Source: an uncultured Anaerolineae bacterium
Lineage (GTDB): Bacteria > Chloroflexota > Anaerolineae > Promineifilales > Promineifilaceae
Length of the DNA: 64,000 nucleotides
Assembly (NCBI GenBank): GCA_937943625.1
Contig: CALEAD010000005.1
Coordinates: forward strand, 12,630-76,629
Direction of reading: 5' to 3'
A program made the translations under genes and the position numbers. This document shows positions 3,534-62,693 of this stretch, piece after piece (positions within the stretch are counted from its first letter, which is position 1; each line of letters starts with the position of its first letter). The notes under the pieces were generated by a model that was given only the letters and a program-made list of their open reading frames with translations, did no database searches and was not told the origin of the DNA.

Positions 3534-4477
3534 GTACCGTACAGGCTGTCGTCATTCCCCAACCGGGGCAGGTAGAATTGCGATCCGTTACCCTGAAAAT
3601 GCCAGGGCCGGACGATGTAGTGGTGCAAACCGCTTACACCTCCATCAGCGCCGGCACCGAGCGCATGTTGCTGGCGGGGCAAATGCCCCATCCCATGTTG
3701 CAACTGCCCGTTGTGCCCGGCTATGAGACAGTTGGTCGCATTGTGGCTGTTGGTGAGAACGTGGATGCCGCCTGGAACGGCCGTTGGGTTTATGTGGGTG
3801 GCGCACACTGCTACGAAGGCATCAACGCCGCCTGGGGCGGCCAATCCGCCACCTTATTTGCCGACGTGAAGCGCGTCATTCCCCTGGATGGCATCGAGCC
3901 GCGTCATGGAGTGCTGCTGGCGCTGGCAGCAACGGCCGTTCACGGCATAGACCTGATTGCTCCTGTTGCCGGTAGCCGCATCCTGATACTGGGGCAAGGC
4001 CCGGTTGGCCAGCTCGCTGCCCGCTTTGCCCAGGCCCAGGGCGCCTGGGTCGCCGTCACCGACCGCATAGAAAGCCGCCTGGCTCGCGCCGTTGCTCACA
4101 CCATTATCAACGTAGACCGTCAACCCCTCAACGAAGCCATTCACGAACCGGTACACACCATCGTCGAAGCCACCGGCTCCATGGCCGCCCTTGCCAGTGC
4201 CTTGCCCTTGTTAGCCAATGGCGGCTCCATTTTGCTGCTAGGCTACTACCAGAACCTGCAACTGCCCTACATGCCACTTTTCCTCAAAGAGGCGCGCCTG
4301 CTGACGGCCAAAGAGTGGGCGCCTGGGGATCTGCTGCACTGCCGTGACGCTATCCGCAGCGGCGCGCTAGAGGTGGGTTCCCTGCTCACGCACACAATGC
4401 CAGTCACAGAAGTGGCCGCTGCCTACCACACCGCTCTCAACGACCTAGACTGCCTGAAGCTGGTGCTGGTGTGGTAA
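3530..4477 (+). CDS. bchC: 3-hydroxyethyl bacteriochlorophyllide a dehydrogenase (MDR/zinc-ADH fold)
   Basis: 315 aa. SISAGTERMLLAGQMP...PVVPGYETVGRIVAVG pattern plus a GxGxxG Rossmann motif (LGQGPVG). Lies in the bchF-bchC-bchX context. Confidence 0.8.
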   Translation: MSTVQAVVIPQPGQVELRSVTLKMPGPDDVVVQTAYTSISAGTERMLLAGQMPHPMLQLPVVPGYETVGRIVAVGENVDAAWNGRWVYVGGAHCYEGINAAWGGQSATLFADVKRVIPLDGIEPRHGVLLALAATAVHGIDLIAPVAGSRILILGQGPVGQLAARFAQAQGAWVAVTDRIESRLARAVAHTIINVDRQPLNEAIHEPVHTIVEATGSMAALASALPLLANGGSILLLGYYQNLQLPYMPLFLKEARLLTAKEWAPGDLLHCRDAIRSGALEVGSLLTHTMPVTEVAAAYHTALNDLDCLKLVLVW

Positions 4478-58202: not shown

Positions 58203-59354
58203 TTATTCTCTGGGCAAGGGCAGGGTAAAGTGAAAGCGGCTGCCCTGTCCCTCCCCCTCGCTTTCTGCCCAGATGCGCCCACCGTGTGCTTCTACCAGGT
58301 GACGAGCAATGGTCAGGCCAATGCCGCTGCCGCCACTGGCGCGTGCGCGCGACTTGTCCACGCGGTAGAAGCGCGTGAACAGATGGGGCAAATGCGCGGC
58401 CGGAATGCCCACGCCGGTGTCGCTGACCGTGATACAGAGGGCGCCGGGTTGGGCAACGGCCGTTACCATCACCTCACCCCCTGCAGGCGTATATTGCAGC
58501 GCGTTGCCAATCAGGTTAATCAACACCTGGGCAATGCGGTCGCCATCAGCCGACACAACCGACAGAGCGGGCGCCGGCTGTACGTGCAGCGCTACCCCCT
58601 TGTCTGCAAACTGACGGTGCAGGCGATTGGCGATCTCTGCTAACAGCACACCTATATCTACTGGCTGGCAGCGCAATTCATACGCGCCCGCCTCCACGCG
58701 GCTCAGCTCTTGCAAGTCGGCTACCAATTGCTGCAAACGCGCCGCTTCCTGGTGAATTTGTTGGAATGTGGTGGCGTCGGCGGGCAGCACGCCATCCATC
58801 AATCCTTCCATGGAGCCTTTGATGACGGTCAGTGGCGTGCTGAGTTCGTGGCTGACGTCGCCAATAAGCTGGCGACGCATGGTTTCTGCTGTAGCAAGCT
58901 GGCGCGCCATCTGGTTGAAGCTGTGTGCCATTTGCCCAATTTCGTCTAATTCCGCAAGGGGGCGATTGGGCAGGGGCAGGATACGGCCGTAATTGCCCCG
59001 GGCAATATCGCGGCTGGCTTCCATAATCTGGCGCACGGGTTGCACAATGCGCCGCGTCATCAGGGCGCTCAGCGCCAGGGCAATCAGGCTGGCGACGCCC
59101 AAAGCAATTAGAGTGGCTTCGGTGACGGCCGTTCTAAAATTCACCACCAGGTCACTTGCCAGGTCACGGTCGGCCATCAGGTGCTGATTGCCCAAACTCA
59201 GCATCGCCATCTCCATGGCCTCCAGGTGGCGGGCAAAGGCGCGGGGCAGGGTTAGCTCCATAGCCAGCACCAGCACAGCCGCTGCCAGCAGCACCACTGC
59301 CAGATAGGAGAGGAAGAGCTTCCAGCCCAATCGTCGTCTGAAGGTGTTGCGCAT
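58203..59354 (-). CDS. Sensor histidine kinase (2 TM + HAMP), CusS/CopS-like context
   Basis: H-box VSHELSTPL plus DTGVGI and GSGIGLTI. Downstream of an OmpR regulator in a copper-type gene neighbourhood. Confidence 0.75.
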   Translation of the reverse strand: MRNTFRRRLGWKLFLSYLAVVLLAAAVLVLAMELTLPRAFARHLEAMEMAMLSLGNQHLMADRDLASDLVVNFRTAVTEATLIALGVASLIALALSALMTRRIVQPVRQIMEASRDIARGNYGRILPLPNRPLAELDEIGQMAHSFNQMARQLATAETMRRQLIGDVSHELSTPLTVIKGSMEGLMDGVLPADATTFQQIHQEAARLQQLVADLQELSRVEAGAYELRCQPVDIGVLLAEIANRLHRQFADKGVALHVQPAPALSVVSADGDRIAQVLINLIGNALQYTPAGGEVMVTAVAQPGALCITVSDTGVGIPAAHLPHLFTRFYRVDKSRARASGGSGIGLTIARHLVEAHGGRIWAESEGEGQGSRFHFTLPLPRE

Positions 59355-59430
59355 GGTTAGTAGGGGGGACTGGAGACGGTTAGCGGTCTGCGGTCAAATT
59401 ATTCAGATTGCTTGCACCATGCCCTCATTG

Positions 59431-60111
59431 CTAATCGCTAACCCCTTCAAATCGGTATCCCACGCCGCGTACGGTGACAATGCCGTGATGAGGCCCCAAT
59501 TTTTGCCGCACGTGTCCCAGGTGCACGTCTACCACGCGAATTTCGCCAAAAAAATTTTGGCCCCACACCTGCTCTAACAATTGTTCGCGGCTGAGAACCA
59601 TGCCGCGATGCTCGGCCAATGTTTTTAGCAGGTCAAACTCAGTGGTGGTTAGCTCTACCTCCTGGCCAGCGGCCCAAACGCGGCGGGCAGCAAGGTCAAT
59701 GCGCAAGTGGGCAAACTGCATCACCCGGCTTTCGGGCAGGTTGCCGCTTTGCAGGCGCCGCAGCGCCGCTTTGATGCGTGCCACCAACTCGCGCGGGCTG
59801 AATGGCTTGGTCAGGTAATCGTCTGCGCCAACCGCCAGCCCTACCAGCTTGTCTGTCTCCTCGCTGCGGGCGGTGAGCAAAATCACGTACACGTCTGACT
59901 CGCGCCGAAGCTGGGCCAATAGTTCCAGCCCATCCATGCCGGGCAGCATGATGTCTAGCACCAGCAGGTCGGGCTGGAAGGCGCGGCACAGTTGCAAAGC
60001 GATACGGCCGTCTACGGCCGTTTTCACCTCGTACCCTTCTGGCCGTAAATAGGCCGTTACCAGGTTCAGGATGTTCTGCTCGTCGTCAACCACCAGGATT
60101 TTAGCGCTCAT
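59431..60111 (-). CDS. OmpR-family response regulator
   Basis: ILVVDDEQ...LDIMLPGMDG receiver plus a winged helix (TTTEFDLLKTLA...GVGYRF). Confidence 0.8.
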   Translation of the reverse strand: MSAKILVVDDEQNILNLVTAYLRPEGYEVKTAVDGRIALQLCRAFQPDLLVLDIMLPGMDGLELLAQLRRESDVYVILLTARSEETDKLVGLAVGADDYLTKPFSPRELVARIKAALRRLQSGNLPESRVMQFAHLRIDLAARRVWAAGQEVELTTTEFDLLKTLAEHRGMVLSREQLLEQVWGQNFFGEIRVVDVHLGHVRQKLGPHHGIVTVRGVGYRFEGVSD

Positions 60112-60133
60112 GTTGGCGGGTGCAGCGAATAGG

Positions 60134-60149
60134 TGACAAGAGATGACAA
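60134..60149 (-). promoter_or_regulatory. Direct repeat TTGTCA-N4-TTGTCA (10-nt period) upstream of the OmpR-family regulator gene
   Basis: The plus strand reads TGACAAgagaTGACAA, 23-38 nt upstream of ATG 60111. The geometry fits OmpR/PhoB-type tandem half-sites. No experimental support. Confidence 0.25.
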
Positions 60150-60236
60150 ATTCAGGCATGGATCATGATACGCGGAAGGGATGCTTTACGAGTTTTTTCG
60201 ACCGTTGGCGGCAGATCGTCTTGCCTTTCCTGTATT

Positions 60237-60264
60237 GCGGTCGGCGGTCTGCCGTCAGTGGTCA
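60237..60264. repeat. Tandem heptamer array (4 units)
   Basis: Units are GCGGTCG GCGGTCT GCCGTCA GTGGTCA, followed by AAAAATT. Confidence 0.85.
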
Positions 60265-60322
60265 AAAATTTGTAAAGATGCTTTGAACCATGCCTAAGTT
60301 TAATTATACCAATTGCCAATAG

Positions 60323-61558
60323 CTAATCGCTCACTTCGCTTAATGCCTGCAAAAAAGCCAATAGCTGGGCGCGTTCGCGGGGAGAAAGGTGCAGGGGTTC
60401 CAGCTGGCTGTGCCCGGCAGGGGCGGGTGGGGCCAGGTGATAGTGCATAATCACCTCTTGCAAGGTGGCAAACTGGCCGGCGTGCATGTAGGGCGGCCGT
60501 TCGGCCACGTTGCGCAGGCTGGGGGGCTTAAAGGCGCGCAGTAGTTCTTCCCCTTCGCTGAGAATGAAGCGCAGTTCGGCGCACTGCTGCGGCGCGGCGT
60601 CGCTGTAGGGGCTGAGGCAGTTGAACTCATCGGCCAGCACGAGCTGCGCGCCAGCAGCGCGGCCGGTGTCTTGGGGTAAACCGGGCGCGTCAGGAACGGC
60701 CGTGTTGTGAAAATCATTGTCTGTCAACAGCGGCCCATTATGACACTGAATGCAGTTTGCCCGGTCGATAAACAGGCGCAGCCCTGCTACCTCATCGGCT
60801 GTCAGGCTGGCGCGCATGGTGCGGGTGTCGCCTTCTAACAACGCCTGCACGTAGGCATCAAAGCGTGAGGGGCCGGGCATGATTGTGCGCTCAAAGGCGG
60901 CAATTGCCTTGCCCATGTTTACGTAGATGCGTGTTACCGCTTCCTGCGCGGCGGGTGTCATGGCGTCCCAGGCGGCGCGAGCAGCAGGGTCTGCTGCTGG
61001 CCCGGCGCTGGCGGGCACACCGCTCAGGTCGGGTAGGGGGCCAAAGAGCGCCTCGTATTCGCTGCGGTAGTGTGCGGCAATCAGGTGGGCGTACTGTGCG
61101 CGCGTGCCGCCATGCTCGACTGGGTTTTCTAGCGGTCCTAGCGCCTGTGCCCACAGGCTGTCTTTACGGCCGTCCCAAAATAGCCAGGGGCTATAGGCCA
61201 TGCCCGCAATTGGCATTGTGCGCCGGTCTGTCGTGCCTATGCCCTGTGCCAGTGGTAGCCCGTCCTGGAAGCCCAGTTCCGGCAGGTGGCATGTGCCACA
61301 AGCAACCCGGCCATTGTTGCTGAAGCGCGCATCAAAGAACAGGCGTTCTCCCAGGGCAATGGCGCGGGGGTCGTCCGCGTAGCGGTTGGAGGGGTCAGGG
61401 GGGAGTGGGGGCAGGCTGCCCAGCCATAGGGTGCGCAGCATGGCAACTTCTGCCTCTGTCCAGCGGTCGGCGCTGCGCGGCCCGAAGATAAATATGGCCG
61501 TAGCCAGGCTAATTGTGGCCAGCGCGGCCAGGAGGATGAGCGTGCGTTTTGCTTGCAT
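60323..61558 (-). CDS. Di-haem cytochrome c peroxidase / MauG-family protein
   Basis: Signal or TM anchor, and two CxxCH sites (CGTCH, CIQCH) with CCP-family spacing. Confidence 0.75.
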   Translation of the reverse strand: MQAKRTLILLAALATISLATAIFIFGPRSADRWTEAEVAMLRTLWLGSLPPLPPDPSNRYADDPRAIALGERLFFDARFSNNGRVACGTCHLPELGFQDGLPLAQGIGTTDRRTMPIAGMAYSPWLFWDGRKDSLWAQALGPLENPVEHGGTRAQYAHLIAAHYRSEYEALFGPLPDLSGVPASAGPAADPAARAAWDAMTPAAQEAVTRIYVNMGKAIAAFERTIMPGPSRFDAYVQALLEGDTRTMRASLTADEVAGLRLFIDRANCIQCHNGPLLTDNDFHNTAVPDAPGLPQDTGRAAGAQLVLADEFNCLSPYSDAAPQQCAELRFILSEGEELLRAFKPPSLRNVAERPPYMHAGQFATLQEVIMHYHLAPPAPAGHSQLEPLHLSPRERAQLLAFLQALSEVSD

Positions 61559-61609
61559 AGGTGGGAGGGATGGTTGGTTGAATACTGCTAACCAACCAAC
61601 GTTCCTCTT

Positions 61610-62080
61610 TCAACGGCCGTAACTGGCAAATATCTCTATGTTGCCATGACGGTCAAACGTCAGCACGTCATACGGTTCGGTGCGGCCGTCGGGCGATTCC
61701 ATGCCTGGGGAGCCAAGCGGCATACCGGGCACAGCCAGGCCAATAATATCGGGGCGTTTGGCCAACAGGCGGGTTACTTCGGCGGCGGGAATATGTCCTT
61801 CTAAAACGTAGCCATCCACGATGGCAGTGTGGCAGGAATAGAGCTGTGGGGGAATCTGGTACTGCTGCCGGATGGCCAGGCCATCGCGCACGGGAATTTC
61901 GGCAACATGAAACCCTTCCTTTTTCATGTACTCCATCCAATCGCCACAGCAGCCTCAGGTGGGTGGGTAATAAACTTGCACGACTGGCGCGCCAAGGTCT
62001 GCGGGCTGCGTTTGTTCGGCGGAGCAGGCCACCAGTATGGGCAGCGCCAGCAGCAGCAGTAAGTGAACAATTCGGGTCAT
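61610..62080 (-). CDS. CopG/DUF411-family lipoprotein gene interrupted by an in-frame TGA (candidate selenocysteine codon, or a pseudogene)
   Basis: AAGGAG 6 nt upstream of ATG 62080. Signal peptide with lipobox ILVAC. The reading frame runs VVQVYYPPT-TGA-GCCGDWMEYMKKEGF and continues into the track ORF 61610-61936, which carries the DUF411 motifs (SCHTA, VPGMPLGSPGME). The TGA is at 61955-61957. Confidence 0.5.
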
Positions 62081-62141
62081 AAACGTCTCCTTGTGAGTGT
62101 AGAGTATAGAGCTAGAGCTGTAGAGAGATGCTCTAGCTTTG

Positions 62142-62693
62142 CTAGCCGCCCAGCAGAATGTTGAACGTAATGGTGTCTTTTTGCCCGGCGGCTTCGATTG
62201 TAAATGTCACTTCCCACCAACCGCTCATCTGAAAGCGCAGCCCTTCTACCAGGTAACGGCCGTTGCCCAGGTATTCGGTCACTTGCGGGCGTGTGGGCAG
62301 GCCGTGCCCGTGTTGGGGCATACCGCCGCTAACGGTAATCGTCGCATTTTCGACTGGTTGGCCATCGGCCGTTTCGACATACAGCGTCCAGCTGTGCATC
62401 TGATTAATGGCAACGGGGTCCAGGTCGTTGGTGAACGAGACCTGGAACAGCCCCTGATCGCTGAGGCGGCTTGTGGATGTGTTCAGGTCAGCAGGGGTGG
62501 CACTGCTCATCATACCGTGCATCATGCCCATGCCTCCCATTGGGCCGCGTAGCGGGGTTGCGGGCATTGTTTCTGCCATGCGCTGGTGCATGAGGGTTGG
62601 CCCCATGGCGGGCAGAAGGAAGAGGAGGAGGGCAACGGTAAGAACGGCCGTTGTCAGCGCAGTTACAAGGATGGTGAGTGCTGTTTTTTGCAT
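62142..62693 (-). CDS. Membrane-anchored Met/His-rich, YtkA/FixH-like protein
   Basis: N-terminal TM segment, an [11 protein letters not shown] Met-rich stretch and a C-terminal beta-rich domain with GMPQHGHG. Sits in a copper-handling context. Confidence 0.55.

Follow-up and report, generated by a model that had tools for sequence, protein, structure and literature searches.

The closest described relative of the protein reported here is CopG of Pseudomonas aeruginosa, a member of the DUF411 family with a Cys-bridged Cu4 cluster, for which a function as Cu(I)/Cu(II) oxidoreductase has been proposed (PMC8456105, PMC8872213). We have analyzed a DUF411/CopG gene in a stretch of 64,000 nucleotides (nt) from an uncultured Anaerolineae bacterium of the Chloroflexota (contig CALEAD010000005.1, positions 12,630 to 76,629 of the forward strand; the whole stretch is called the window in the following). 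The codon for the first Cys of the CxCC copper motif is an in-frame UGA in this gene. The original prediction, which was made from the letters of the window, had put two explanations side by side, a selenoprotein or a precise pseudogene. We argue here that the UGA very probably encodes selenocysteine (Sec) and that an RNA element located far downstream in the same reading frame probably takes part in its recoding.

Sec in place of the N-terminal Cys of a CxxC-type motif is found in the UxxC thioredoxin-fold selenoproteins (DsbA-like form 1, DsbG-like, redoxin; PMC13188914). The window protein resembles these in several respects: its homology to CopG predicts a thioredoxin-like fold, it has abundant Cys homologues, and the sequence U-G-C-C contains U-x-x-C. 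In contrast to the UxxC selenoproteins, the CopG motif forms a multinuclear copper cluster and not a dithiol/disulfide couple. A CopG/DUF411 selenoprotein family is absent from the catalogues that were searched, up to 2026. It is listed neither in the table of a 2026 review in Applied and Environmental Microbiology (as DUF411, CopG, PF04214 or UxCC) nor in the deep-Sep paper, it does not appear as a selenoprotein in the 2022 review and the Global Ocean Sampling paper (also under COG3019), and NCBIfam holds no model that matches the TGA-form CopG family. The openly searchable literature likewise yielded no account of DUF411, CopG, COG3019 or PF04214 as a selenoprotein.

In the canonical bacterial Sec insertion sequence (SECIS), the apical loop lies 16-37 nt downstream of the UGA (PMC10778597). 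Few positions of the E. coli SECIS are conserved; they include G23 and U24 in the apical loop, and SelB binds at U17 and G23 (PMC8659212). A SECIS that was grafted into the 16S rRNA still works (PMC10945757), and hence contiguity of the SECIS with the UGA is not required.

Results

When the UGA is read through, the DUF411/CopG gene is complete and covers 61610-62080 on the minus strand, with 156 codons including the UGA, which is codon 42 (61955-61957). Positions in the RNA are counted from the U of the UGA as +1, so that the window coordinate equals 61958 minus the position. The start described in the original prediction is read directly in the sequence: an ATG at 62080 is preceded by a Shine-Dalgarno-like AAGGAG 6 nt upstream (62087-62092), and the N-terminus MTRIVHLLLLLALPILVAC is a lipoprotein-type signal peptide (62024-62080) with the lipobox LVAC and Cys19, from which export to the envelope is predicted. 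The frame reads ...VVQVYYPPT-TGA-GCCGDWMEYM... and is then unbroken, again as described before, down to the gene's own stop codon, a TGA at 61612-61610. Since the gene itself ends in TGA, a general or genome-wide reassignment of this codon can be dismissed.

For the protein searches, Cys was substituted at the TGA. The translation matches the Pfam DUF411 model (PF04214) with 94.4 bits against a gathering cut-off of 27 (E=3.3e-27), and it matches the structure of P. aeruginosa CopG (6WIS_A) with E=2.7e-30, residues 34-154 aligning with 5-123 and the TGA with the first C of CGCC. Over the roughly 120 aligned residues the motifs C-H-T, G-M-P-x-G-S-P-G-M and x-G-C-C-x-x-W are shared with the P. 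aeruginosa protein (PDB 6WIS/6WJE); both proteins are exported, and both genes lie among metal-related genes. There are also differences. The first residue of the CxCC motif is encoded by UGA in the window, and the motif therefore reads (UGA)-G-C-C, in which Cys 2 and Cys 3 are present and the first ligand exists only if the UGA is decoded as Sec or Cys. Furthermore, the window protein is a lipoprotein of the Chloroflexota, whereas P. aeruginosa CopG is a Gram-negative periplasmic protein, and the gene partners are a YtkA-like gene and a di-haem CCP/MauG gene in the window and cop/cus genes in the case of CopG.

We compared 80 DUF411 loci of GTDB species representatives that were picked by protein similarity. 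The first CxCC codon is TGA in 29 of them, which belong to Caldilineaceae and Caldilineales, Anaerolineales, Ardenticatenaceae, Ca. Fredericiella, 'Chloroflexia' metagenome-assembled genomes (MAGs), one Desulfuromonadales MAG and two Vicinamibacteraceae. All remaining loci, including those of Proteobacteria, Campylobacter, cyanobacteria, Gemmatimonadota and Rhodothermaceae, have TGC or TGT in this column, so that TGA and Cys codons do alternate here, the pattern that the original prediction had suggested to look for. The UGA column is shared by 35 Cys forms, C42 is invariant in one of the alignments, and no other codons than TGA and those for Cys occur in it. The DNA of two relatives reads PPT*GCCGDW (L001) and PPS*GCCGLW (L004) around the TGA. 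Downstream of it the GCCG.W peptide is conserved while its codons vary synonymously. Upstream of it, 119 of 122 distinct peptides from relatives contain a hydrophobic, signal-like stretch and 91 of the 122 a lipobox-like motif. A conserved TGA/Cys column with coding constraint on both sides is the classical signature of a Sec/Cys pair, and it rules out a pseudogene, an assembly error and two separate products.

Nothing but the stop codon itself speaks for a pseudogene, for a nonsense allele confined to this copy or for an error of sequencing or assembly. Against these stand 29 GTDB species and more than 100 metagenomic genes with this TGA, which was also seen in independent ENA, Logan and NCBI assemblies, including assemblies of the same allele. 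Its recurrence in one column in dozens of species and independent assemblies is far above chance, the gene has no further disruption and its synteny is conserved, so that the probability of this explanation is practically nil.

Gene callers treat the TGA as a genuine stop. Among the database entries, almost all of the closest relatives (65-100% identity) are annotated as open reading frames (ORFs) of 105 or 108 amino acids (aa) that begin just past the TGA, whereas more distant DUF411 relatives are full length and have CGCC. For MFO7684374.1 (L091:10001-10318) and the other 105/108-aa entries the pipelines call an orphan ORF of 41-47 aa and a truncated 'DUF411 domain-containing protein'. If this annotation, which is also that of the Prokaryotic Genome Annotation Pipeline, were right, the locus would make a signal-peptide fragment of 41 aa and a cytoplasmic DUF411 fragment of 105/108 aa from an internal ATG, and such an ATG does lie 6 codons past the TGA in the window. 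However, all forms conserve the GCCG.W stretch between TGA and internal ATG at the protein level, a Met is missing at this place in many relatives (for example ...GDWVKYMEE... and ...GTWIEYLRD...), the internal ATG has no ribosome-binding site, the upstream signal peptides are conserved, and a truncated product would be without the copper ligands of CxCC as well as the export signal. Termination at this TGA is thus very improbable.

The Sec-decoding trait has been reported in Chloroflexi, Acidobacteria and Deltaproteobacteria and is reported to be absent from Cyanobacteria and Bacteroidetes (PMC1794560, PMC5322559). The TGA forms fall into Sec-decoding phyla, and the sampled cyanobacterial and Rhodothermaceae loci are all Cys forms. 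A second case is found next to one of the orthologues. Directly after the TGA-form DUF411 gene of a Caldilineales MAG (L014) follows a gene for a tandem DsbA/Thioredoxin_4 lipoprotein (Pfam E=5e-77; L014:3569-4942, plus strand) with a TGA at 3896-3898; its domain 1 reads ...EWSDYT-U-PYCG... and its domain 2 ...EFSDYQ-C-PFCL.... A 9-bp hairpin starts 9 nt downstream of this UGA and is followed by a second hairpin (-24.7 kcal/mol, z=-3.7). DsbA-like UxxC proteins are a catalogued selenoprotein family (PMC13188914); judged from its sequence, this gene is an ordinary candidate for a UxxC selenoprotein, and it can serve as the internal control for how a canonical SECIS looks in Chloroflexota.

Recoding of the UGA to a residue other than Sec would be conceivable by insertion of Cys via SelB and a non-canonical tRNA, or by near-cognate read-through with Cys or Trp. 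SelB-dependent insertion of Cys has been reported in some bacteria. The column alternates between TGA and Cys codons only, the TGA forms occur in Sec-decoding phyla, a member of a catalogued UxxC selenoprotein family adjoins one orthologue, and simple leaky read-through would need no dedicated conserved RNA element of the kind described below. We therefore consider recoding to another amino acid improbable. From the two alternatives of the original prediction the selenoprotein has held up, on account of the conserved TGA/Cys column, the translated flanks, the Sec-decoding phyla and the second selenoprotein gene beside an orthologue, while the precise pseudogene is refuted; nor is the TGA a lone nonsense allele, one of the findings that were named as fatal to a selenoprotein. 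Based on the comparative sequence data, UGA codon 42 of the window gene is very likely a Sec codon.

The original prediction had also pointed to a possible SECIS, an 8-bp hairpin ACAUGAAA-N9-UUUCAUGU at 61905-61929 on the minus strand (+29 to +53). The hairpin exists, and it is situated in what is the variable interior of a long-range loop (see below), but it does not behave as a SECIS. Hairpins with 5 bp or more and a loop near +33 can be formed by 15 of 31 TGA forms, where synonymous shuffles predict 13.2 +/- 2.1 (P=0.25), and by 13 of 35 Cys forms. Minimum free energy z-scores downstream of the UGA, again against synonymous shuffles, have a mean of 0.04 in TGA forms and -0.07 in Cys forms, and the score of the window's own proximal region is positive. 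A bSECIS-style pattern is present in 17 of 31 TGA forms and in 18 of 35 Cys forms. RNAalifold on the ungapped codon alignment gave no conserved proximal helix, and Rfam gave zero matches at gathering thresholds and no SECIS family even at E<=10. The hairpin recurs in its position because the conserved [ML]-E-E-N-G-F codons generate it. We have therefore rejected it as SECIS: its frequency is that of chance, it is about as frequent in Cys forms, it has no excess stability and no Rfam match. More generally, hairpins with an apical loop 16-37 nt past the UGA occur at chance level only in the window and the Chloroflexota forms. The RNA signal that is specific for TGA forms is located elsewhere, outside the range considered before, and consists of a long-range helix and a hairpin with a GU loop (61834-61811).

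This signal was detected by a scan of synonymous-codon entropy, for which 33 distinct TGA forms were aligned codon by codon with 35 Cys forms (numbers of codons are those of the alignment). Most synonymous sites are saturated in both groups, and two blocks are frozen in the TGA forms only. The first block adjoins the UGA: Pro(-2) is CCY in 31 of 33, Thr(-1) is ACY, Gly(+4) is GGC in 29 of 30, Cys(+2) is UGC in 26 of 33, and Cys(+3) is UGU in 25 of 33 TGA forms, compared to UGC in 28 of the 35 Cys forms (Fisher P=2e-5). It includes the 5' flank of the UGA, CCA CCC AC, from -9 to -2 (61959-61966). The second, distal block comprises Leu+41 (CUC, 23/28), Cys+44 (UGC, 31/33), Ala+47 (GCC, 31/33), Ile+48 (AUC, 32/33), Asp+50 (GAU, 32/33) and Gly+51 (GGC, 32/33). 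Cys forms with the identical AIVDG peptide use varied codons.

The two frozen blocks are complementary to each other. UGUGGCG at +10 to +16 (61942-61948) can pair with UGCCACA at +124 to +130 (61828-61834), 114 nt downstream in the Cys-His-Thr codons; we call this helix H1. Two nt past the 3' strand of H1 begins a self-contained 6-bp hairpin, H2, with the perfect sequence GCCAUC-GUN-GAUGGC (-8.1 kcal/mol, z=-2.0). It occupies +133 to +147 in the codons A-I-V-D-G, in the window as GCCAUC-GUG-GAUGGC (61811-61825), and thus starts 129 nt past the UGA codon. Its loop is GUG, GUU or GUC in all 33 sequences and hence exposes G-U at the apex. H2 is complete in 31 of 33 TGA forms versus 4 of 35 Cys forms, and H1 in 25 of 33 versus 2 of 35. 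The partition-function probability of H1 has a median of 0.99 in the TGA forms (above 0.5 in 25 of 33) and of 0.00 in the Cys forms (0 of 35 above 0.5). A third helix, H0, may form between the Trp-codon region at +18 to +22 (61940-61936) and +116 to +120 (61838-61842), where the window has UCUAU and most relatives UCCAG; four of the five pairs are possible in the window, and H0 is not predicted thermodynamically there. A subclass without Gly at +4 has lost H1 and kept H0 and H2.

Base pairing was tested by pair counts on a gapless alignment of 171 columns, with sequences picked by protein similarity and not by RNA motif. In the proposed register 93.9% of the cells pair, versus 30-49% with slid partners. 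Changes on both sides occur at three pairs, which was equalled in 5 of 500 shuffles. The partner of G11 is the third base of the His codon, which is free to vary and is found as C in 22 and as U in 11 sequences, a wobble tolerance of the RNA type. One relative (L019) has a compensatory change in H1, with GAU at +4 and UGU at Cys+44 (G:C to A:U), and the column pair 30:132 varies between C:G, U:G and U:A. The element was then used the other way round, in a scan of metagenomes by the distal motif alone. In 104 of the 109 distinct usable genes found (95%), a TGA is present exactly 123 nt upstream, at the CxCC position. All 158 occurrences of the H2 15-mer in the collected comparison DNA are within DUF411. 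These data make it likely that the H1/H2 element serves the recoding of the UGA.

In folds of full-length sequences, the H2 sequence often pairs with the flank of the UGA itself and not as a hairpin. The positions -9 to -7 pair with 144-146, -5 to -2 with 139-142, G2 and A3 with 137-138, and G4 to C6 with 133-135. This register pairs in 91.7% of the cells compared to 29-50% with slid partners, and it accounts for the frozen Ser, Pro, Thr and Gly codons around the UGA. The 5' flank of the UGA can pair either locally with G11-G14 or with the sequence of the distal hairpin. A 4-bp bracket helix (-5 to -2 with 11 to 14) had been considered as the cause of the codon bias and was superseded, since H1 and the pairings between flank and H2 explain more of the frozen sites.

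Two TGA forms from Vicinamibacteraceae (Acidobacteriota) are built differently. They are without H1 and H2 and have proximal hairpins like that of fdhF instead. At L077:1491-1521 this is GGUGUG-GGUCU-CACACC, with a stem from 11 nt past the UGA and the loop GGUCU, and the hairpin at L059:3034-3067 is likewise proximal; in both, the apical loop is situated 16-37 nt past the UGA. The proximal hairpin and the lack of the distal element in the Acidobacteriota suggest an independent acquisition of Sec at this residue.

The gene neighborhood is conserved. As noted before, the DUF411 gene lies between a Met-rich YtkA-like gene (62142-62693, minus strand) upstream and a gene for a di-haem CCP/MauG-type enzyme (60323-61558, minus strand) downstream, and this synteny is kept in relatives. 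An OmpR-type response regulator and a HAMP/HisKA sensor kinase follow (58203-60159, minus strand). The order YtkA-like, DUF411 (TGA), CCP/MauG, regulator, kinase extends over 58203-62693 (minus strand) in the window and is found in L001, in L088-L091 and in most of the window's clade; the lineage of L004 has the YtkA-like, DUF411 and CCP/MauG genes and is without regulator and kinase. This conserved order suggests an envelope copper or redox module. The regulator and the kinase match models of the heavy-metal (CopRS/CusRS-type) subfamily with scores under the cut-offs. For the CCP/MauG neighbor the best NCBIfam scores, far under the cut-offs, are to the MbnH-family and MauG models; enzymes of the MbnH/MauG type modify partner proteins, and hence this one might target the adjacent CopG or YtkA protein rather than peroxide.

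Further disrupted reading frames came up. Other TGA sites in the window, at about 5027, 1853, 15236, 21126 and 54729 (all minus strand), were considered as a second selenoprotein and rejected. Their junctions have a coding-like composition, for example CQ-U-AC and AG-U-VCGICG, and their translations are rich in Q, H and R as is typical of antisense frames; they read as antisense-frame artefacts and none looks gene-like. Another copper gene, for a PCuAC/LpqE-like chaperone at L004:11672-12154 (minus strand), is split into ORFs of 42 and 112 aa. Here a duplicated stretch of about 20 nt (aaggtgggcggcctgcatgtc) and not a TGA is the cause, probably as an assembly artefact, since L005 and L006 carry this gene in one piece (146 aa).

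Discussion

The explanation that we favor, slightly better supported than an even chance would be, is that Sec is inserted into an exported, lipid-anchored CopG and that the distal hairpin H2 directs the recoding through H1. The confidence differs between its parts. While the identity of the residue as Sec is the firmest, we would put a role of H2 as the SelB site just on the probable side, and the details of tether and refolding are tentative. In the proposed mechanism, the H2 sequence would be paired with the UGA flank at the beginning and bury the UGA. An approaching ribosome would melt this pairing and set the distal strand free to fold as H2. SelB with Sec-tRNA(Sec) would then bind the GU-loop hairpin, and H1/H0 would hold H2 at the mRNA entrance of the ribosome with the UGA in the A site, at an effective spacing like the canonical 11 nt. 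It is thus conceivable, although we hold it only tentatively, that bacteria can use a discontinuous SECIS, in which a GU-loop hairpin about 130 nt downstream is tethered by a helix that begins 6 nt past the UGA.

Comparison with described SECIS elements shows both sides of this proposal. Like the fdhF-type SECIS of E. coli, H2 is short, G+C-rich, located within the coding sequence and provided with G-U in the apical loop, and in fdhF, too, the UGA can pair in a lower helix that needs melting by the ribosome (PMC8659212). Unlike the fdhF-type SECIS, H2 lies about 130 nt and not 11 nt from the UGA and is without the bulged U. Canonical elements are continuous, whereas this one is discontinuous, and in most members proximity to the UGA would need the long-range helix. 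A hairpin that is not contiguous with the UGA is known from the SECIS of archaea and eukaryotes (3' untranslated region) and from the engineered RiboU (16S rRNA graft, PMC10945757). However, these use SBP2/eEFSec, archaeal SelB or an artificial graft, while the element here is part of a bacterial ORF and would work by a tether between two parts of the mRNA.

Several observations weigh against this explanation. The distance of about 130 nt between UGA and H2 is far outside the canonical range, and the bulged U of the E. coli SECIS has no counterpart in the perfect 6-bp stem of H2. The support for H1 and H2 comes mostly from conservation and little from covariation, and the TGA forms are phylogenetically clustered, so that binomial and Fisher P values overstate independence. 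Eight of the 33 TGA forms carry a C.A mismatch in H1, six of them a single one. When full-length sequences are folded, the flank pairing competes with H2, whose predicted probability is often low (median 0.09). A search of the window and of 1.15 Mb of comparison DNA gave neither a tRNA-Sec (aragorn) nor selA, selB or selD; tblastn with approximate E. coli SelA, SelB and SelD queries returned a weak generic GTPase match only. A long-range or discontinuous bacterial SECIS is not described in the openly searchable literature, a scope that leaves subscription-only papers outside. Finally, some sequences do not fit well. A PG* subclass from Desulfuromonadales-like bacteria (15 sequences: L025, L053, L097, L117, L126, L130, L131, L134, L135, L149, L154, L166, L180, L197 and L209) has kept H2 with a mean P of 0.96 and has no predicted tether to the UGA, and one close Cys form (L212) has kept the entire RNA element.

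The UGA flank of the PG* subclass pairs locally, -5 to +2 with +15 to +21; Gly(-1) and Gly(+5) are both GGC, and the signal peptides are of the ordinary and not of the lipoprotein type. L212 is one of the three nearest full-length Cys forms (L212:4001-4495, L213:1460-1939, L214:4001-4480), which are all TGT, one step from TGA, and are located outside the YtkA/CCP operon. Its H2 carries a compensatory change, GCCGUC-GUG-GACGGC (A:U to G:C), and in L213 and L214 the RNA element is partly decayed. TGT codons together with an element that is intact in L212 and partly decayed in the two others fit a recent reversion from Sec to Cys.

The PG* class, with H2 and without a tether, also belongs to the points that favor another explanation, which we consider less likely. 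Sec might be inserted while H1/H2 is not the SECIS, and SelB might read a weak, clade-variable proximal structure such as the hairpin at +29 to +53, which is present in about half of the TGA forms. The DsbA-like gene of L014 uses a strong proximal hairpin, from which it seems that the local SelB accepts the canonical geometry, and the UGA flank is sequestered in a helix in full-length folds. The distal element would then have another role linked to Sec, such as slowing of the ribosome, masking of the UGA from RF2 or protection of the mRNA after termination. Yet the proximal hairpin has the frequency of synonymous shuffles, is about equally common in Cys forms and lies in a region without excess stability, whereas H2 is the most conserved RNA feature, has G-U in its loop and predicts the TGA in 95% of independent sequences.

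For the protein, the consequence of Sec insertion would be that the selenolate of Sec42 replaces one thiolate of the Cys-bridged Cu4 cluster of CopG and tunes the Cu(I)/Cu(II) redox handling in the envelope. Selenolates are softer ligands than thiolates, and their pKa is lower. CopG(U) may share this task with its YtkA-like and di-haem partners, and the adjacent two-component system probably exerts control.

If the distal hairpin with its tether acts as the SECIS, the range of 16-37 nt in bacterial selenoprotein finders would be too narrow, and more families may be hidden. A discontinuous SECIS would break the rule that the SECIS stands immediately after the UGA and would account for the failure of SECIS-based searches to find a family that occurs widely in Chloroflexota. 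Tolerance of a SECIS far from the UGA would also ease the sequence constraints on recombinant selenoproteins with internal Sec. More than 100 public genes of this CopG family are at present mis-annotated as a tiny ORF and a truncated DUF411 protein. With Sec at this position, a copper-cluster protein would be added to the bacterial selenoproteome, and selenium use would be tied to copper handling in three groups that abound in sludge, sediments and soils, namely Chloroflexota, Desulfuromonadales-like bacteria and Acidobacteriota. The exchange of selenium for sulfur in a Cu4 cluster would then be a natural experiment in the tuning of a metal site.

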